A program made the position numbers and the translations under genes. Source: an uncultured bacterium (GTDB taxonomy: Bacteria; Patescibacteriota; Minisyncoccia; Phycocordibacterales; GWA1-40-21). Taken from it: DNA of 51,136 bases. Shown here in pieces: positions 35,759 to 50,132 of the stretch. The notes under the pieces are model-generated. The model was not told where the DNA came from. It worked only from the letters and a program-made list of their open reading frames with translations, and made no database searches. Numbering within the stretch: position 1 is the first letter of the stretch; the number at the start of each line of letters is the position of its first letter. The stretch spans positions 1 to 51,136 of the forward strand of contig CAIKXY010000010.1 in the NCBI GenBank assembly GCA_903831595.1. The letters are read 5' to 3'.

Positions 35759-35811
35759 ATAGTCATAGCCAAAAGCTCCTAATTTTTTTGGAAACTTTTG
35801 GCTATGACTAT
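35759..35811 (+). promoter_or_regulatory. 17-bp perfect hairpin in the 5' leader of the DGR-1 target gene
   Basis: atagtcatagccaaaag (35759-35775) pairs with cttttggctatgactat (35795-35811). Confidence 0.5.
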
Positions 35812-35877
35812 CAATATCCACGATACGTCAAGAGTAATTCAGCCTGTCTTATGACAGACAAAAGGGAGGATTTGACC

Positions 35878-36489
35878 ATGGATAACATGCTCAAAAAAGC
35901 ACTTCGCGATTATCGCGAACTGCGCGAACAGTTTGAAAACGTATTGTTAGGCGAAGAAAGCGAACTTTGGGAGAGAGAAGCGAGAAAGTTTCTCTCAAAA
36001 CGCCCCTGCTGGAATCAGAAAGAAAATAGCTACCTGAAGCTAATTTCTGATGGCAAAAAAGTTGTTATTGCTTCAACAGACGGCAAGGAAACTATCGCCA
36101 ATGCTCAGAAAATTTTTCCGAGCGGTATAGATTCTGATTTCAAAAACTGGAATCTCGATGTGCCGAGTACACCGACCAAGGAAACAAAAACGCAAGTTTT
36201 TGAGATGGTCAAGGACGGCATGTTCAAGGATATCTTCGGAAGTTTTGGAGAAAACTTGGACCGTCTGTGCTTCACGCAAAGCCAAATCATCTTTTTTGTG
36301 AAAAACCACGCTAAGTGGCTTCGCACTGGTGGCTATGGAACCTTCTTTCTCTTTAAAGTCGGGAAGGATTATTTCGTGGCGAACGTGTACTTGAACTCTG
36401 ATGGGCTTTACGTGTACGTGGATCGCTTCTCGTGTGGCTACGTCTGGTGTGCTGAGTACAGGCGTCGGATTGTTGTCCCACAACTGTAA
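35878..36489 (+). CDS. DGR-1 variable (target) protein
   Basis: The preferred start is ATG 35878, preceded by AAGGGAGGA. The ORF-track TTG 35788 lies inside the leader hairpin. The C-terminal approximately 38 codons are VR1. No signal peptide. Confidence 0.85.
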   Translation: MDNMLKKALRDYRELREQFENVLLGEESELWEREARKFLSKRPCWNQKENSYLKLISDGKKVVIASTDGKETIANAQKIFPSGIDSDFKNWNLDVPSTPTKETKTQVFEMVKDGMFKDIFGSFGENLDRLCFTQSQIIFFVKNHAKWLRTGGYGTFFLFKVGKDYFVANVYLNSDGLYVYVDRFSCGYVWCAEYRRRIVVPQL

Positions 36490-36496
36490 TTTTTTC
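36368..36496 (+). repeat. DGR-1 variable repeat (VR1) including IMH-like 3' end
   Basis: Ungapped alignment to TR1 (offset 458). In 36368-36479 there are 13 mismatches, all at TR adenines. Confidence 0.9.
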
Positions 36497-36531
36497 ACTT
36501 AGTTTTTTTGTCCCTTTGAAACTTGGACACT

Positions 36532-36578
36532 TTGACCCTCTGAAATCCGTAAGGAAAGTAAGGGGGTCAATTTTTTTG
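36532..36578 (+). terminator. hairpin plus T-run downstream of VR1 (terminator and/or DGR target-recognition hairpin)
   Basis: ttgaccctc (36532-36540) pairs with gggggtcaa (36562-36570). The loop contains tcc-gtaa-gga, and ttttttt follows. Confidence 0.55.
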
Positions 36579-36735
36579 TTTTAATTTGTATTTTTGTATA
36601 TAATAAAAACGCAATTATAAGCGTTTTCGGCTATGGCTTAAGACTACAATTGTATATCTATATTATTTTAGAGTTTTACCGGATATGTCTTGTAAAAGAG
36701 TGAATGGTATAAATATCTTATAAAAATAAATAAAG

Positions 36736-36764
36736 TTGGTGTAGTATTTTAGAGGACTTATAAG
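36736..36764 (+). promoter_or_regulatory. candidate promoter of the TR1 RNA
   Basis: TTGGTG (36736-36741), a 17-nt spacer, then TATAAG (36759-36764). The -10 element ends 62 nt before TR1, the same distance as at DGR-2. Confidence 0.4.
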
Positions 36765-36825
36765 TCCCGCATAAGATACAATCTGTCATGGTTTGGCGGA
36801 TGGTGATATGGGAGAAATATTGCAC

Positions 36826-36954
36826 ATAATTTCGTGGCGAACGTGAACTTGAACTCTGATGGGCTTAACGTGAACGTGAATCGCTTCTCGAATGACAACG
36901 TCTGGAATGCTGAGAACAGGCATCGGATTGTTGTCCCGAAACTAAAATATTTTC
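36826..36954 (+). repeat. DGR-1 template repeat (TR1)
   Basis: Asn-codon-rich (AAC/AAT) invariant copy of VR1. It is translated as a spurious ORF in the track (MANVNLNSDGLNVNVNRFSNDNVWNAENRHRIVVP). Confidence 0.9.
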
Positions 36955-36980
36955 TCCCGCTTATTTGGCGGGAGTTTTTT
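36954..36980 (+). terminator. hairpin plus U-run immediately 3' of TR1
   Basis: ctcccgc-ttatttg-gcgggag followed by tttttt. The avd stop codon (complement of tta 36961-36963) lies in the loop. Confidence 0.55.
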
Positions 36981-37260
36981 GTTGTAAACCTTTTTTCCAT
37001 CCACCGAGCATTCTTCCAATTTCTTCTAATTTTTCAGACAACTCAATATATTTTTCATTTGGTATCAATTTACTTTCCCATGCAAGTTGGGAGAAGAATT
37101 TTAGAGTATCTAATTTTGTTATTGTTTTTCCTAGTAGTATAATCTTTGATTCAGGAGGTAAATATACTGATGCAAAACTAAATTCTAGAATATCTAAAAA
37201 TGAACTCTCTATCTTTTGTCCAATACCAAAGCGTTCAGTTTTAGGAAAATTTCTGTGCAA
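36961..37260 (-). CDS. avd: DGR accessory variability determinant (Avd-like four-helix-bundle protein), 5' end ambiguous
   Basis: FPKTERFGIGQKIE...KLDTLK...EIGRMLGGW resembles Avd/IVS four-helix-bundle proteins. The TTG start at 37260 truncates helix 1, and the frame stays open upstream to the G10 tract. ATG 37345 would be in frame if the tract were one base shorter. Confidence 0.8.
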   Translation of the reverse strand: MHRNFPKTERFGIGQKIESSFLDILEFSFASVYLPPESKIILLGKTITKLDTLKFFSQLAWESKLIPNEKYIELSEKLEEIGRMLGGWKKGLQQKTPAK

Positions 37261-37319
37261 ATTTAGCCAAAATTGATAAGCATCTTTTTCTTTTGATATT
37301 ACAACGGGCGATTTCTGTA

Positions 37320-37329
37320 GGGGGGGGGG
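37320..37329. repeat. G10 homopolymer between/within the avd 5' end and RT upstream region (DGR-1)
   Basis: Direct reading: ttctgta + G10 + tcac. Confidence 0.95.
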
Positions 37330-37355
37330 TCACTTTATAGTTCATATAATTTATT

Positions 37356-38339
37356 ATGGAAATTAATTTTAATACTTACGATACTATCATATCTCTAAAA
37401 AATATTCACGAAGCTTGGCGTGAATTTATTTCTGACAAAAGATATAAAAATGATGTTGCCGAATATGCGCTTGCTCTTTCAAATAATATATCTAACTTAC
37501 ACCATGATTTGAAAAATAAAACATATATTCATTTTGGATATAAAGCTTTTTCTATTAATGACCCAAAACCAAGAAATATTCATAAAGCAATTGTGCGTGA
37601 TCGATTATTACACCATGCGATTTATAGGATTCTTTACCCTTATTTTGATAAAAAATTCATACACGATTCATACTCATGTAGAAATTTTAAAGGCACACAT
37701 AAAGCATGTAATCGTTTTAGAGATTTTGCGAGAAAAGTATCAAAAAATCACAGTAGAACATGCTGGGTTTTAAAATGTGATATAAGAAAGTTTTTTGCTT
37801 CTATAGACCATCTTATTTTGCTGAATATTTTAAAAAGACATATTTTTGATGTTGATACTCTATGGCTTTTAGAAAAAGTCATAGAAAGTTTTAGTAGCAC
37901 TCAAAAAGGAAAAGGCTTGCCTCTTGGGAATCTGACATCACAACTTTTGGTAAATATTTATATGAACGAGTTTGACCAATATATAAAACATACTCTTAAA
38001 ATAAAATATTATATTCGATATGCCGATGATTTTTTGGTATTAAGTGATAAAAAAGAAGAGTTGAAATCTTTGCTCGTTTTAATAGATACATTTTTAAAAG
38101 AAAGGCTTGCTTTATTACTGCATCCAAATAAAGTATTTATAAAAACATTTGCTTCCGGGGTTGATTTTCTCGGTTGGGTGAATTTTTCTGACCATAGAGT
38201 TTTGAGGACAGCCACAAAAAGAAAAATGTTTAGAAAATTAAAGGAAAGTAACAAAAAAGAAACCATTCAGTCGTATTTGGGTATGTTAAAACATGGAAAT
38301 GGTTTTAAACTTAGAAATAGAGTAACCAATTTTTTGTAA
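37356..38339 (+). CDS. DGR-type reverse transcriptase
   Basis: 327 aa with RT motifs including LPLGNLTSQLLVNIYMNEFD (the DGR-typical SQ motif) and IRYADDFLVL (YxDD). Confidence 0.95.
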   Translation: MEINFNTYDTIISLKNIHEAWREFISDKRYKNDVAEYALALSNNISNLHHDLKNKTYIHFGYKAFSINDPKPRNIHKAIVRDRLLHHAIYRILYPYFDKKFIHDSYSCRNFKGTHKACNRFRDFARKVSKNHSRTCWVLKCDIRKFFASIDHLILLNILKRHIFDVDTLWLLEKVIESFSSTQKGKGLPLGNLTSQLLVNIYMNEFDQYIKHTLKIKYYIRYADDFLVLSDKKEELKSLLVLIDTFLKERLALLLHPNKVFIKTFASGVDFLGWVNFSDHRVLRTATKRKMFRKLKESNKKETIQSYLGMLKHGNGFKLRNRVTNFL

Positions 38340-47151: not shown

Positions 47152-48975
47152 ATGGAAAACCTCGACTTCCTCAAAAATAAATACAATCTACACAATACAG
47201 AAGAAGTAGAAAAAGCAGCAAAACGCACAGAAAAGCGCACTGGAGAAAAAGTGCCACAAAATCCAAAAGATCAGATACAAAACTACCTAGACAGATTCAC
47301 CGAAATTATTGAAAGAAAGGAACCAGGGAAAAGAGAAAGGGGAATAGAAGCTATAAAAAGTGTTATAGATGACAAGTACATTATTAAACCTGAAGAAATT
47401 CCAGAAAGCTATTATGAAAACCAAAGGCGAATCGCTCGTGAACAAGGCCATGGAGATGTTGAAATAACCGATGAGGCAAGAAATCAACTCAAAGAAGTCA
47501 TAATAAAAGATCAAAAAGATTCTCTAGACAACTGGATTGACTACCTATCATCAAAAGATGCCACATATCCAGACTGGCTCAAGTATTTTGCTATTAGAAA
47601 TCTTCTCGGAATGGGAGAATATGATAAAGAAAAGAAACAATTCACTAAAAGATCAAAAGGCACAGTAAAGCCATTCCCAGACATAAACAGAGAAGCATTA
47701 GCATATGTACTAGATGCAATAGAGAAGAAACATAAAGGAATACCAAACGATAAAGACCCAGAATTCCAGGCTCTTCTACGAGGAGAAAATTTTGCTAAAC
47801 TCTATGCATGGGCTATAGACAAAGCTACACCAGAATCGGAGAAAGGACTTACAAACATAAAGGGTGAATGGGTAAAGTATAGACAAGGCAAAGACCACAT
47901 GCCACTCGTAGAATCTTTGCAAGGTCATGGAACAGGATGGTGCACAGCAGGAGAGTCAACAGCAAAAGCTCAACTGGAAGGCGGTGACTTCTATGTATAT
48001 TATTCAGAAGATAAAAATGGAAAATCAAATGTTCCAAGAGCTGCTATTCGTATGCAAGGAAATGAAATAGGTGAAGTCAGAGGTATAGGAGCAGACCAAA
48101 ACCTAGACCCATACATTGGTGATGTAGTAAAAAAGAAACTTACAGAATTTCCAGATGGAGACAAATACAAAAAGAAAGAAGCTAATATGAAACTTCTTAC
48201 TCAAATAGATAACAAAACAAAACTAAAACAACCTCTTATAAAAGATGAACTCATTTTTCTATATGAAGTAAACACTGAAATCGAAGGCTTTGGATATCAA
48301 AGAGATCCTCGCATAAAAGAAATAATCGACCAAAGAAATCCAAAAGAAGATGCACCTATAGTTTTTGATTGTCAGCCAAATCAAATCGCATATTCTGAGA
48401 AAAAAATAAATAAAGATACAAAAGCTTATGTTGGACCTCTATTCAAGGGAATATTCCAAACAAACATTGACCATATAGGAACTTCTTTCCCAGAGGGAAT
48501 GTTGAAAAAGATGGAAGCTGAAATTGGTGGAAAAAATAAAAAAGAACTCGAGAAAGAACTAAAGGAAAATAAAGTTTGGATTTCGGATTATGCTAAAAGC
48601 ATGATGAACAATTCTGATTTCACTACATCAAAAAAATTAGAACAATTAAATCTCGCTCGTATCACTGTAAAATCTCTCGGTTTTCCAAATGGCGCCACAA
48701 CTGATGAAATATACAAAAAAGCGGAAGAACTTGGTTTAGAATTATGTCCAGCAGAAGTCGGTCCCCAGCTTCGTTTGCAGTATTTGGACCAGCCAAATGG
48801 AGAATATATTTTTATAGGAATGAAACAAATTTCTGACTCCGTTGGCTACCCGAGCGTGTTCAATGTGCTCCGCTACGACGATGGCAGGCTGGAGCTCGAC
48901 GGCCGCAGCGCTAAGCCTGACGATAGGTGGGGTGGCGGCCGCGGGTTTGTGTTCCGCATGCCTCGCAAGTCTTAG
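47152..48975 (+). CDS. DGR-2 variable (target) protein
   Basis: 607 aa with no signal peptide. The C-terminal approximately 47 codons are VR2. The last ~100 aa resemble the C-terminus of the DGR-1 target. Confidence 0.85.
   Translation: [607 protein letters not shown]
48829..48968 (+). repeat. DGR-2 variable repeat (VR2)
   Basis: Ungapped alignment to TR2 (offset 446). There are 22 mismatches, all at TR adenines. The invariant 3' block is gtttgtgttccgcatgcctcgcaa. Confidence 0.9.
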
Positions 48976-49213: not shown

Positions 49214-49274
49214 GCCAAATTAGATTCAATCCCGAGAGCATTCAAGGGGTGGTGGTAAAGAAGATATTTTGCAC

Positions 49275-49414
49275 ATTTCTGACTCCGATGGCAACCCGAA
49301 CGTGTTCAATGTGAACCGCAACGACGATGGCAAGCTGAAGCTCAACGACAACAACGCTAAGCCTGACAATAGGTGGAATGACAACAACGAGTTTGTGTTC
49401 CGCATGCCTCGCAA
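49275..49414 (+). repeat. DGR-2 template repeat (TR2)
   Basis: AAC/AAT-rich copy of VR2, seen in the track as the spurious ORF ...SDSDGNPNVFNVNRNDDGKLKLNDNNAKPDNRWNDNNEFVFRMPR. Confidence 0.9.
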
Positions 49415-49426
49415 CTCTTTTCATTT

Positions 49427-49457
49427 CTCTCCCATTTATTTGGGAGAGTTTTGTTTT
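49427..49457 (+). terminator. hairpin plus U-run immediately 3' of TR2
   Basis: ctctccca-tttatt-tgggagag followed by ttttgtttt. It is homologous in position and shape to 36954-36980. Confidence 0.55.
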
Positions 49458-49775
49458 CCCCCACACCTTTCATTTTATCCTCTCAAATCATATAATGATG
49501 GTTATGTTTTATCTCTATATATTGAAAAGCACTAAGGATGATAATTTGTATATAGGCTCTACAAATGATTTGAGACGAAGACTTTCTGAACATAGTAATG
49601 GAAAAGTACGTTCAACAAAATCTCGTGTCCCATTTGAACTTAGATATTACGAATCATTTTTCAAAGAGATAGACGCAAGGAAAAGAGAGTTTTCGCTTAA
49701 AAAAGATGGTAAAGCACTCGGACAATTGAAAAGAAGAATTTCAGAAAGTCTTAAATAAAATGAAAGGTGTGGGGG
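49458..49775 (+). mobile_element. 318-bp TIR-bounded element encoding a small GIY-YIG protein, inserted in DGR-2
   Basis: 21-bp perfect terminal inverted repeats (49458-49478 cccccacacctttcattttat / 49755-49775). They are flanked by 9-bp direct repeats, ttttgtttt (49449-49457) and ttttgtctt (49776-49784). The element is absent at the homologous DGR-1 site. Confidence 0.75.
49495..49758 (+). CDS. GIY-YIG nuclease family protein (small UPF0213/YhbQ-like)
   Basis: MMVMFYLYILKS...NLYIGSTNDLRRRLSEH...YYESF...KREFSLKK shows GIY-YIG motif spacing. It is about 87 aa, and the stop codon lies within the right TIR. Confidence 0.8.
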   Translation: MMVMFYLYILKSTKDDNLYIGSTNDLRRRLSEHSNGKVRSTKSRVPFELRYYESFFKEIDARKREFSLKKDGKALGQLKRRISESLK

Positions 49776-50110
49776 TTTTGTCTTAATATCTGCCCATTCC
49801 AACCACCTAGCATTTTTCCAATTTCATCTAAATGGAGAGATAAAGCGATATACTTTTTATTATCCAAAGATTTTGTTTCCCACAAAACCATAAGCAAGAT
49901 TTTCAATGTGTCTAATTTTCTGATGGCAACAGATATATAAGTTCTTTTTTCTTCTTTTGGCAGGAAACTTGCTACAGAAATTGCTTCTATGATTTCTATA
50001 AATAATGTGTCAATTCTATTTCCTAGAGAATATCTATGTGGTTTGGGCAGAATTTGATAATATTCATACCAAAGAATATAAGCAGTTTTTACTTTCTGTA
50101 AAAGTGGCAA
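49751..50110 (-). CDS. avd: DGR accessory variability determinant (Avd-like), 5' end ambiguous
   Basis: Paralog of 36961..37260 (…RKLDTLKILL…EIGKMLGGW…). It has a TTG start in the track. The frame continues through the G9 tract, and upstream ATGs (50136, 50139, 50145) are out of frame by one base. Confidence 0.8.
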   Translation of the reverse strand: MPLLQKVKTAYILWYEYYQILPKPHRYSLGNRIDTLFIEIIEAISVASFLPKEEKRTYISVAIRKLDTLKILLMVLWETKSLDNKKYIALSLHLDEIGKMLGGWNGQILRQNPHTFHFI

Positions 50111-50123
50111 AAGTTTCTGTAGA

Positions 50124-50132
50124 GGGGGGGGG
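50124..50132. repeat. G9 homopolymer at the avd 5' end / RT upstream region (DGR-2)
   Basis: Direct reading: ttctgtaga + G9 + tcat. Confidence 0.95.

Follow-up and report, generated by a model that had tools for sequence, protein, structure and literature searches.

A miniature inverted-repeat element carrying a single GIY-YIG nuclease gene, inserted into a DGR and belonging to a widespread family in Patescibacteria

The element and its insertion site

The DNA analysed is a stretch of 51,136 nt of contig CAIKXY010000010.1 (the window), and all coordinates refer to its forward strand. In DGR-2, a 318-bp segment (49458-49775) lies between perfect 21-bp terminal inverted repeats (TIRs, 49458-49478 and 49755-49775), in the following arrangement:

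49427..49448, plus strand: hairpin of DGR-2 just 3' of the TR, terminator-like, 8 pairs, tail TTTTGTTTTC
49449..49457, no strand: left copy of the target-site duplication, TTTTGTTTT, the same as the single copy in the empty sites L083 and L084
49458..49478, plus strand: left TIR, CCCCCACACCTTTCATTTTAT, also the 5' arm of helix H1, assigned from the inverted repeat and family conservation
49491..49496, plus strand: TATAAT, candidate -10 box, 7 nt 5' of the ATG at 49504; the hexamer is kept in most of 29 aligned elements
49504..49758, plus strand: GIY-YIG nuclease gene (Pfam PF01541), 84 aa plus stop, the stop codon lying inside the right TIR
49751..50110, minus strand: avd of DGR-2, host gene of the insertion, assigned from Pfam bAvd, NCBIfam DivGenRetAVD, the C-termini of homologues and in-silico excision
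49755..49775, plus strand: right TIR, ATAAAATGAAAGGTGTGGGGG, also the 3' arm of helix H1, assigned from the inverted repeat and family conservation
49776..49784, no strand: right copy of the target-site duplication, TTTTGTCTT, with one T-to-C change relative to the left copy
~36826-38339: DGR-1, with TR ~36826-36943, hairpin 36953-36975, avd 36961-37260 and RT 37356-38339

As an earlier note on this DNA had claimed, the two arms of 21 nt are 100% complementary. They are spaced by 276 nt, and the 21-mer does not recur elsewhere in the window, even when up to 3 mismatches are tolerated (chance expectation 0.01). The direct repeats beside the element, TTTTGTTTT (49449-49457) and TTTTGTCTT (49776-49784), are identical at 8 of 9 positions, again as claimed, and represent a real target-site duplication. 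In fact, at the orthologous sites L083 (whose Avd is 93% identical) and L084 the element is absent and a single TTTTGTTTT is present, in the context GGGAGAG TTTTGTTTT AATAT... or GATAG..., so the 9-bp duplication is genuine and not a T-rich coincidence. The filled site was seen in two independent assemblies (L081 and L082) and is, therefore, no assembly artefact.

The target was the T-tract after the TR-proximal hairpin of DGR-2, where 9 bp (TTTTGTTTT) were duplicated and the last three codons of avd replaced. Hairpin and T-tract form a terminator-like site which belongs to the target region, outside the element; the same hairpin is found in the orthologous DGRs L083 and L084, and its minus strand codes for the ancestral Avd-2 C-terminus and stop codon. 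In the filled site, the end SPK (three codons plus stop) is swapped for PHTFHFI and a new stop codon, both provided by the minus strand of the right TIR, while the T-to-C change in TTTTGTCTT turns a K into an R. It had been proposed that excision mends this C-terminus, and removing the element and one 9-bp copy in silico does give an Avd-2 ending in ...GQIL(K/R)QNSPK, in agreement with the ...KQNSPK or ...KQNSPAKAGEK of close homologues. When the element is excised with 4 bp instead, a frameshifted Avd results, 28 residues longer and unlike any homologue, and it is for this reason that the 9-bp reading stands. The insertion was probably almost neutral for the DGR, since the T-tract stays beside the hairpin and the TIR provides a nearby stop codon.

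The location of the segment, between TR and avd in a DGR that is evidently functional (of 24 TR-to-VR differences, 22 fall at TR adenines), could mean that it belongs to the DGR, either as an ancestral module lost from DGR-1 or, as the earlier note suggested, as a nuclease aiding cDNA integration into the variable region. Nevertheless, related DGRs do not carry it: the closest orthologues, L083 and L084, are without it at exactly the same position, where the DGR-2 copy is flanked by its 9-bp duplication. When the 80 related loci were searched by tblastn with Avd-1, Avd-2 and the RT, a single avd-like match appeared (L044), so that an avd-like gene is nearby at only 1 of 80, with no conserved co-occurrence with DGR RT, Avd or TR; the same element is found elsewhere at DnaA-box-like sites, tRNA gene ends and intergenic spacers. 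Empty orthologous sites and missing co-occurrence refute the idea for practical purposes, and its residual probability is very small indeed. DGR-1 does lack an insert at the equivalent position, but it is a paralogue and not the empty allele for which it had been taken, the true empty sites being the orthologous DGRs of other genomes. The element is thus unconnected with DGR mutagenesis, its nuclease gene is a passenger inside DGR-2, and this gene should not be annotated as a DGR component.

The nuclease gene and its product

The only conserved ORF between the TIRs encodes a UPF0213/YhbQ-like GIY-YIG protein, matching Pfam PF01541 with E = 1.1e-15 and 58 bits (cut-off 22.6) over profile positions 1-74 of 78. 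The ORF had previously been read as 87 aa; its identity stands, but the real start is probably the ATG at 49504, giving 84 aa, since most of the more than 400 close homologues have exactly this length. The catalytic residues of the GIY-YIG type (Y3, Y5, Y16, G18, R26, H30 and E62) do not vary among 34 aligned homologues, and a median dN/dS of 0.09 reveals strong purifying selection on the gene. At the 50% identity level there are 632 representatives with E <= 1e-10, and 6,061 with E <= 1e-3.

The AlphaFold2 model of the protein (pLDDT 79) presents the GIY-YIG alpha/beta fold, the top Foldseek matches being 1zg2 (UPF0213 BH0048), Slx1, 1ywl, I-TevI and the UvrC N-terminal domain, with modest TM-scores of ~0.5. 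By sequence, the nearest are 1zg2 (E = 7.5e-6) and 1ywl (EF2693, E = 5e-3). This closest similarity, as well as the single domain of 84 aa (~85-100 aa in the subfamily), places the protein among the UPF0213/YhbQ-like ones. No recognised transposase class (DDE, DEDD, HUH, Ser or Tyr) is encoded by the element, whose sole ORF is the GIY-YIG domain: the Pfam search of the protein gave only PF01541 and a weak T5orf172 match, and the NCBIfam search only sub-threshold GIY-YIG-type matches, with no HUH/Y1 (IS200-like) transposase in either. The group I intron endonuclease model TIGR01453 scored 23 bits against a cut-off of 56. As regards expression, the TATAAT hexamer, if it acts as a -10 box, would produce a leaderless mRNA; the consensus promoter scan made no call at this position because the -35 is weak.

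A family of elements in Patescibacteria

Patescibacteria harbour a widespread family of miniature mobile elements, to which the segment 49458-49775 belongs as one copy. Its members are 285-320 bp long and composed of two TIRs with a conserved CCCCCACACC terminus and one 84-aa catalytic-domain-only UPF0213/YhbQ-type GIY-YIG gene. At about 65 of the 80 genome loci the same gene lies between inverted repeats of 15-25 bp ending in CCCCCACACC. The outer 10 nt of the TIR are conserved across the family, while the inner 11 nt of the left arm covary with the right arm. Over the whole TIR, 93.3% of cells are paired versus 72% in shuffles, 17 of 21 pairs having changed on both sides. At other sites, L001 and L097 encode proteins 92-93% identical to that of the DGR-2 copy and show 35-37 internal differences from it (25-32% of third codon positions), with none at the 42 TIR positions. 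In a compact subfamily, the start codon falls inside the left TIR. The gene-bearing unit can be present more than once per contig (L010 and L021).

The earlier note had proposed looking for further copies of the 21-bp TIR and for filled and empty sites, and both exist: exact copies occur at many different sites, including L001 and 14 metagenome contigs whose flanks are unlike those of the window wherever readable (one of them, L093, being the same site as genome locus L011), and the DGR-2 site is filled in L081 and L082 and empty in L083 and L084. Its main reading, a miniature TIR element with a GIY-YIG gene inserted into DGR-2 with a target-site duplication, is borne out by these copies, by the empty sites and by the lack of the segment in related DGRs. 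Over the family, 40 of 66 independent insertions have exact duplications of 4 bp or more, versus 3.5 expected from re-paired flanks; 19 of the 66 have no exact duplication and 6 more only 2 bp. The norm is 4 bp, sometimes 5, the 9 bp of DGR-2 being an outlier. Recent transposition is not indicated in the species-dereplicated sample, where no pairs more than 97% identical were found at different sites, and phage carriage was also discarded, the matches in viral contigs being only three, partial and distant.

The literature yielded neither a description of such GIY-YIG-only TIR elements nor an insertion-sequence family based on GIY-YIG, in line with the surmise that small YhbQ-like GIY-YIG genes are undescribed as cargo of elements with TIRs and target-site duplications; nor was a report on function or mobility found for UPF0213/YhbQ/COG2827. 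A GIY-YIG miniature transposon family is, apparently, undescribed so far.

The same ends also bound derivatives without the gene, namely MITE-like forms of ~135 bp and hairpins of 30-45 bp (~40 bp), and the 613 kb of flanking DNA contain ~35 extra TIR pairs, all of them gene-less and 27-204 bp long. Since these derivatives keep the same ends, the inverted repeats, common to all forms, are likely to be the cis-acting mobility signal. The DGR-2 copy is not itself a MITE, as it bears an intact, selected ORF.

The existence of these derivatives raises the question of whether the element might be non-autonomous and MITE-like, moved in trans by a conventional transposase (e.g. DDE), with the GIY-YIG gene as cargo or with an accessory or addiction function. 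Repeats shared by forms with and without the gene suggest that the latter is not needed in cis; in addition, 4-bp duplications are typical of several DDE insertion-sequence families, the protein has just 84 aa, and no GIY-YIG protein is known to catalyse transposition. Nevertheless, all elements of at least 275 bp with these ends, among the ~65 loci and the metagenome copies examined, hold the GIY-YIG gene and nothing else, and the 613 kb of flanking DNA contain no conventional transposase between such TIRs. Moreover, the gene is under the strong purifying selection described above, the start and stop of its reading frame are intertwined with the TIRs, and its association with them is kept from 92% down to 54% protein identity. 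Movement in trans is, on these grounds, an unlikely explanation. Autonomy is favoured because there is no other ORF between the repeats and the stop codon lies in the right TIR.

Target sites

The elements have inserted at very diverse sites, and 54 out of 58 insertions lie between genes, within the final 12 codons of an ORF or a short way upstream of a gene. A recurrent target, TTAT/CCACA, was found, with ~16 perfect TTATCCACA boxes flush with the element ends. Insertion into replication origins was discarded because these boxes stand alone, at 1-2 per 6 kb, and do not form clusters, and TTATCCACA is, therefore, better called a preferred target motif than oriC. A location at hairpin bases was rejected as well, since 58 reconstructed empty sites, compared in folding energy with 347 control windows, showed no enrichment (p = 0.86). 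At tRNA genes, the TIR termini rebuild the gene ends.

In 17 of 66 insertions, versus 5.9 expected, one of the flanks agrees with the TIR terminus at 6 or more of 8 positions. At L003, L006, L031, L061 and L063 it copies 7-19 nt of this terminus, and at L006, L061 and L063 even private TIR variants are copied. A homology-assisted process fits such copying better than simple cut-and-paste.

The matching and copied flanks, the recurrent target with its flush boxes and the rebuilt tRNA gene ends all speak for a free-standing homing-endonuclease gene, which would cut sites resembling its own ends and be copied from a donor via double-strand-break repair and microhomology, the repeats and duplications being by-products. 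The GIY-YIG homing enzymes (I-TevI, I-BmoI, phage T4 Seg) share with the element's protein the catalytic fold and residues, selfish behaviour and some preference for recurrent targets, although the match to I-TevI is weak (E = 0.34 by sequence, E = 0.24 by fold). These enzymes, of ~200-270 aa, also possess a linker and a DNA-binding domain; they reside in introns or between phage genes and have one cognate site, with no known inverted repeats or duplications. Against homing stand the 84-aa, single-domain protein, devoid of that DNA-binding domain, the great diversity of insertion sites and the exact 4-5-bp duplications at 40 of 66 insertions, which fit staggered-cut fill-in and not synthesis-dependent repair, as well as the same repeats on gene-less derivatives, several of which carry 4-bp duplications. 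Consequently, the gene was not classed as a homing endonuclease, and this explanation is regarded as improbable.

Secondary structure of the element

Besides H1, formed by the two TIRs, two internal helices were located:

49481..49490, plus strand: 5' arm of helix H2, TCTCAAATCA, non-coding, directly 5' of the TATAAT box
49566..49575, plus strand: 3' arm of helix H2, TGATTTGAGA, codons N21-D-L-R24
49578..49590, plus strand: 5' arm of helix H3, AAGACTTTCTGAA, codons R25-R-L-S-E29
49740..49752, plus strand: 3' arm of helix H3, TTCAGAAAGTCTT, codons I79-S-E-S-L83

In H2, as judged by RNAalifold and by counting pairs, both partners have changed in 8 of 9 pairs and pairing reaches 96.9% of cells; H3 presents compensatory synonymous changes across the family. 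In the subfamily of the DGR-2 copy, the whole element is thus predicted, from covariation, to fold into a three-way junction of H1, H2 and H3. Paired cells amount to 94.6%, versus 83% in shuffles and at most 51% with the partners slid; none of 500 shuffles reaches the observed value on four of five measures, and 40 of 500 do so on the count of further pair types. In the compact subfamily, which is more distant, the TIR helix alone was recovered, with neither H2 nor H3 detected, and the three-way junction is not extended to it. H2 and H3 are, therefore, dispensable in cis, as they are also absent from the hairpin-only derivatives. A known RNA family or ribozyme was discarded, since an Rfam search of the element (E <= 10) gave chance-level matches only and the junction has no conserved core.

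It could be argued that the paired ends and helices act mainly in RNA, the 21-bp stem being processed (e.g. by RNase III, as in rRNA intervening sequences), which would make the insertion harmless and the mRNA stable, a role compatible with DNA mobility. The compact subfamily, with its start codon in the TIR, has no room for a promoter of its own, and most elements point the same way as the gene or tRNA beside them (~20 versus 6, in our own reading of the neighbourhoods). GIY-YIG ORFs occur, moreover, in insertions of CPR rRNA genes that are not introns (PMC11270868). Nevertheless, a hand tally of pair types in the junction gave 19 G.U-type and 28 C.A-type mismatches and, since the former are not commoner, there is no sign of strand-specific RNA. 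In the DGR-2 subfamily, the likely -10 box comes after the 5' arm of H2, and neither H1 nor H2 could, therefore, form in the mRNA of the element itself. An RNA role also leaves unexplained the duplications, the empty sites and the gene-less derivatives with the same repeats; as the main function of the helices, it is held to be rather unlikely.

A proposal for mobility

Taken as a whole, the results are best explained by a GIY-YIG miniature mobile element with TIR ends whose nuclease is its own mobility enzyme, which we consider probable. The nuclease itself, we infer, would drive mobility by staggered cuts at AT-rich sites. The protein, probably as an oligomer, would recognise the conserved outer 10 bp, or the stem of the two paired repeats, and would cut at the element boundaries as well as at the target, with a stagger of usually 4 nt, sometimes 5, and 9 at DGR-2. 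Preferred targets would be TTAT/CCACA, tRNA gene ends, gene 3' ends and terminator T-tracts, and host repair or ligation would finish the insertion and make the duplication. The three covarying helices and the whole-element junction of the DGR-2 subfamily point to a folded single-stranded intermediate, more likely DNA than RNA, which may be the substrate of this Slx1-related, structure-sensitive nuclease.

In a bolder formulation, the family would be a new class of DNA transposon in prokaryotes and, at 285-320 bp, the smallest that is autonomous, in which an 84-aa GIY-YIG protein mobilises a folded substrate (the paired repeats or the three-way junction), probably single-stranded DNA. This is put forward tentatively, as a serious possibility that falls somewhat short of probable. 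GIY-YIG enzymes are hydrolytic nucleases and are not known for strand transfer, which speaks against the protein being a mobility enzyme. The absence of a separate DNA-binding domain in the 84-aa protein makes its recognition of 10 bp hard to explain. The unfixed length of the duplication (4, 5 or 9 bp) and its lack at 19 of 66 insertions likewise count against the best explanation, as do the copied TIR termini in some flanks, the lack of near-identical pairs in the dereplicated sample, the restriction of H2 and H3 to part of the family and the target sites not enriched in hairpins.

Relation to known systems and implications

The element resembles insertion sequences and MITEs (e.g. the IS5 and IS630 types) in its TIRs, short target-site duplications, and filled and empty sites, in its gene-less miniature derivatives with the same ends, and in the survival of insertions at non-disruptive sites. 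Unlike insertion sequences, it has no DDE, DEDD, HUH, serine or tyrosine transposase but only the 84-aa nuclease domain, its duplication varies (4, 5 or 9 bp), and it folds as a whole into a covarying three-way junction. Autonomous insertion sequences are known only down to ~0.7 kb, more than twice its 285-320 bp.

The architecture is similar to that of REP/REPIN-RAYT systems, where a small nuclease-type gene is also flanked by inverted palindromic repeats, gene-less hairpins and doublets of the same sequence are dispersed in the genome, and a covarying stem has a conserved short terminal motif. The RAYT enzymes are of the HUH/Y1 (IS200-like) type, usually encoded by one copy that is passed on vertically, and REPs are not known to have target-site duplications. 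Here, in contrast, the enzyme is of the GIY-YIG type, duplications are the rule and the gene-bearing unit is present at many sites; a REPIN/RAYT system was, therefore, rejected, the HUH/Y1 transposase being absent.

The UPF0213/YhbQ proteins (COG2827; BH0048, PDB 1zg2, and EF2693, PDB 1ywl) are the closest by both sequence and fold, and are also catalytic-domain-only. Slx1, a eukaryotic structure-specific GIY-YIG nuclease, provides the second-best fold matches (Foldseek probability 0.99) and cuts branched DNA, according to the titles of its structure entries, an activity which would suit a three-way-junction substrate. Unlike the nuclease of the element, Slx1 has an added zinc-finger domain, requires Slx4 and is a repair enzyme outside mobile elements.

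Were the GIY-YIG protein to move the element, its transposase chemistry would have no counterpart in the bacterial insertion sequences known so far, and no self-sufficient transposon known would be more compact, with a bearing on the minimal requirements for mobility and possible use as a very small DNA-insertion tool. The widespread UPF0213/YhbQ proteins gain a testable function, and Patescibacteria, whose reduced genomes are thought poor in such elements, a major family of repeats and mobile elements. As for the GIY-YIG insertions in CPR rRNA genes, inverted repeats, direct repeats and transposition are unmentioned in the paper that describes them (PMC11270868), their hosts belonging to the same group as those of the element family. 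It is plausible that these insertions and the DGR-2 element are of the same family which, if true, may explain these 'non-intron' insertions.

Insertion of the element into DGR-2

The segment flagged in the earlier note lies between the DGR-2 hairpin and the 3' end of avd-2, among the following features of the window:

47152-48975, DGR-2 target gene
48826-48973, DGR-2 variable region (VR), within the target gene
49272-49419, DGR-2 template repeat (TR)
49427-49448, DGR-2 hairpin, then T-tract
49751-50110, minus strand, DGR-2 avd
50170 to beyond the window end, DGR-2 reverse transcriptase
~35788-38339, DGR-1, a paralogous second DGR

Mismatches concentrated at TR adenines are a hallmark of DGRs, and in DGR-2 22 of the 24 mismatches between TR and VR fall there. 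In the avd 5' region of both DGRs a G9-G10 homopolymer is present (50124-50132 and 37320-37329), which on the avd strand is a C-run coding for a Pro-Pro-Pro conserved in long-form Avd homologues. In both, an upstream ATG lies one base out of frame with the avd body, an offset for which a sequencing error in the homopolymer or slippage-based phase variation of the long Avd form could account.

The element is bounded by perfect 21-nt terminal inverted repeats (TIRs) spaced 276 nt apart, with no further match to the 21-mer in the window when up to 3 mismatches were allowed (0.01 expected), and the direct repeats TTTTGTTTT (left) and TTTTGTCTT (right) stand at its edges. Its single conserved ORF encodes a protein with a GIY-YIG domain (PF01541, E = 1.1e-15). 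Homologues of Avd-2 number more than 2,000, and the C-termini of those nearest to it read ...GGWNGQILKQNSPAKAGEK, ...KQNSPNK or ...KQNSPK. For the empty-site comparison, the DNA of two Avd-2 relatives was read in the window's plus orientation: L083, a DGR that has a reverse transcriptase next to it and whose Avd shares 93% identity with Avd-2, and L084, which carries Avd P0136. In both, GGGAGAG TTTTGTTTT leads directly into the avd body, with one copy of the 9-mer and no element, while the filled site reads GGGAGAG TTTTGTTTT (318 bp) TTTTGTCTT AATAT. In-silico excision of the element together with one 9-mer gives Avd-2 the ending ...GQIL(K/R)QNSPK*; a 4-bp duplication was rejected for this site, as removing the element and 4 bp only left a frameshifted tail resembling nothing. 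The earlier proposal of a TIR element carrying a GIY-YIG gene and inserted in DGR-2 with a target-site duplication is thus borne out by the perfect repeats, the single-9-mer empty sites and the restored ...QNSPK*. The 9-bp flanking repeat is a true target-site duplication and the segment an insertion. The filled site is not an assembly error, since it is identical in two further assemblies (L081 and L082).

Insertion changed the Avd-2 C-terminus from ...SPK* to ...PHTFHFI*, and a T-tract, which scans as a terminator, still adjoins the DGR-2 hairpin; the cost to DGR-2 was probably small. The alternative that the nuclease takes part in DGR function is not supported, the orthologous DGRs at L083 and L084 being empty.

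An extended family with conserved ends

The GIY-YIG protein has more than 400 close homologues, the majority of exactly 84 aa, 70-92% identical and nearly all from Patescibacteria, and a filter-free search of 1.84 billion representatives gave 632 matching clusters at E <= 1e-10 and 6,061 at E <= 1e-3. In about 65 of the 80 genome loci fetched, the gene lies between 15-25-bp inverted repeats with the conserved outer motif CCCCCACACC ... GGTGTGGGGG. The inner arm sequence varies by lineage and complementarity is kept: over 53 distinct repeat pairs, 93.3% of cells are paired, against 72% in shuffles and about 41-60% with slid partners, and 17 of 21 base pairs show two-sided changes, values that no shuffle reached.

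Exact flanking direct repeats of at least 4 bp accompany 40 of 66 non-redundant insertions (33 of 4 bp, 7 of 5 bp), compared with 3.5 expected on random re-pairing of left and right flanks. Since the family duplications are of 4 or 5 bp, that of the window is an outlier in length, not in kind. In 17 of the 66 insertions (5.9 expected), a flank is similar to the repeat terminus, with at least 6 of 8 matches, and in L006, L061 and L063 the flank carries even private variants of the left repeat. This likeness leaves room for a homology-assisted step. In the right flanks of L006, L031, L061, L063 and L003, the first 7-19 nt of the left TIR, private variants included, recur directly after the duplication, for which simple staggered-cut insertion does not account.

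As regards the window's own subfamily, the exact 21-mer was found in 14 metagenome contigs, which, where both flanks could be read, hold it at sites other than that of the window, mostly with 4-bp duplications; L093 among them shares its insertion with genome locus L011. Two copies, L001 and L097, have 92-93% protein identity to the window's element and differ from it at 35-37 of 276 interior positions (25-32% of third codon positions). Nevertheless, their TIRs show 0 differences in 42 nt, so that the TIRs must be under strong constraint. To judge from its substitutions, the GIY-YIG gene is also constrained, with a median dN/dS of 0.09 and invariant residues Y3, Y5, Y16, G18, R26, H30 and E62. 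In two cases a pair of gene-bearing copies shares a genome: L010 and L021 lie ~12 kb apart on contig CAZADR010000002.1, and L015 and L018 in one MAG. The copies belong to diverged sublineages and are not recent duplicates, and L010, L021 and L015 are at DnaA-box-like sites.

Gene-less derivatives

The 613 kb of fetched DNA contain about 35 extra gene-less pairs of the same repeats, none of which encloses another ORF. They fall into size classes of about 130-140 bp, ~70 bp and 27-45 bp, the last being essentially two repeats back to back (hairpins). Several show duplications of 4 bp, and several lie within a gene-bearing element or directly adjoin one. The ~135-bp MITE-like and 27-45-bp hairpin derivatives include:

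L003 3278-3412
L004 2158-2291
L055 3265-3401
L057 3270-3405
L089 4007-4145
L090 12412-12451
L096 24-66
L040 2573-2603

As these forms carry no other ORF, the repeats are what all forms have in common and are likely the cis-acting mobility determinant, with the GIY-YIG protein the sole trans-acting candidate that the family encodes. The main rival, in which a conventional transposase at an unlinked locus mobilises the elements in trans, is possible but less likely: gene and repeats stay strictly associated across 54-92% protein identity, the ORF ends are interleaved with the repeats, and the DNA examined holds no transposase bounded by them.

In different genomes, nearly the same flank, TTTACCAAGCAAAGT, recurs after CCCGCACAC-type miniature elements; it could be either a conserved target or one piece of a larger composite repeat:

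L046 ~2046
L065 ~3403
L066 ~3464
L067 ~1108
L071 ~3411
L048 ~3121

Insertion sites

Of 58 insertions placed in context, 33 are intergenic, 14 just upstream of a gene and 7, like that of the window, in the last 12 codons of an ORF, only 4 being nominally inside one. About 16 element ends are flush with a perfect TTATCCACA, a DnaA-box-like 9-mer (the DnaA-box consensus); such insertions among the 66 scored duplicate TTAT, and the many members exactly at TTAT|CCACA include L002, L008, L010, L011, L016, L019, L020, L075, L087, L090 and L095. A replication origin was rejected as their context, the boxes being isolated and without origin-like clustering. Further insertions follow T-tracts. At tRNA genes the TIR terminus rebuilds the end of the gene, overlapping it by 4-7 nt at the extreme 3' or 5' end, with the element in the orientation of the tRNA in all four cases:

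L030 2888-2960, tRNA-His
L063 2909-2980, tRNA-Gly
L034 3275-3364, tRNA-Ser
L070 3275-3350, tRNA-Ala

On a Nomurabacteria contig (L072 4955-5028), ARAGORN called a tRNA whose TTA anticodon would decode the UAA stop codon; the call may be false, or the tRNA a suppressor.

Predicted fold of the whole element

RNAalifold, applied to 29 aligned elements from the subfamily of roughly 303-319 bp, predicted three helices:

H1, the two terminal repeats paired
H2, 49481-49490 with 49566-49575
H3, 49578-49590 with 49740-49752

Linkers of 2-3 nt connect them in a predicted three-way junction using both element ends. Overall, 94.6% of cells are paired; shuffles give 83% and slid partners no more than 51%. 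Both sides have changed in 8 of 9 pairs of H2, 6 of 13 of H3 and 11 of 21 of H1. On four of five whole-structure measures none of 500 shuffles reached the observed value; on the fifth, the count of further pair types, 40 did. The compensatory substitutions in H2 and H3 are partly synonymous, and the 13-bp internal inverted repeat of H3 (I4) is kept through compensatory synonymous changes.

An RNA-level role of the stems is a possible contributor. Nevertheless, mismatches tallied by hand from pair-type counts carry no strand-specific RNA signature, since the G.U type (19) is not commoner than the C.A type (28). Moreover, a probable -10 box (TATAAT, 49491-49496) is found downstream of the H2 5' arm, so that neither H1 nor H2 could form in the mRNA of the element itself. 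On our reading, tally and box position favour a folded single-stranded DNA form. The element matched no Rfam family. In a compact, distant subfamily only H1 was recovered, and the hairpin derivatives lack H2 and H3, which are thus not needed in cis for movement.

Nuclease and proposed mechanism

The comparisons establish an insertion with duplication and empty sites, and show that the family has conserved ends, derivatives lacking the gene, and a nuclease gene under selection. For its movement, the nuclease, probably oligomeric, would recognise the conserved terminus or the paired repeats, cut the element boundaries and make staggered target cuts, mostly 4 nt apart, with host repair or ligation completing insertion. 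The element works like insertion sequences with MITE derivatives, and its arrangement is similar to REPIN/RAYT, but its enzyme class differs from both and assignment to either failed. Literature searches combining GIY-YIG with TIR/TSD, transposase/transposon, MITE/REP/RAYT or CPR/Patescibacteria, and on UPF0213/YhbQ/COG2827, gave no description of such elements, and a paper reporting non-intron insertions with GIY-YIG ORFs in CPR rRNA genes (PMC11270868) does not mention repeats or duplications. The family is large and apparently uncatalogued, and its minimal mobile elements bring an unexpected candidate mobility enzyme and a predicted whole-element structured fold.

Among solved structures, the closest in sequence are those of the UPF0213 proteins BH0048 (1zg2, E = 7.5e-6) and EF2693 (1ywl). 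The AlphaFold2 model (pLDDT 79) best matches 1zg2, followed by Slx1, 1ywl, the I-TevI catalytic domain and the UvrC N-terminal domain. A homing-type copy mechanism possibly contributes, although the nuclease consists of the catalytic domain alone, with none of the DNA-binding modules of homing endonucleases. Some relatives (P0256, P0260, P0273, P0294, P0310 and others) are of 230-370 aa with the GIY-YIG domain N-terminal; an added DNA-binding domain or a read-through fusion may account for their length.
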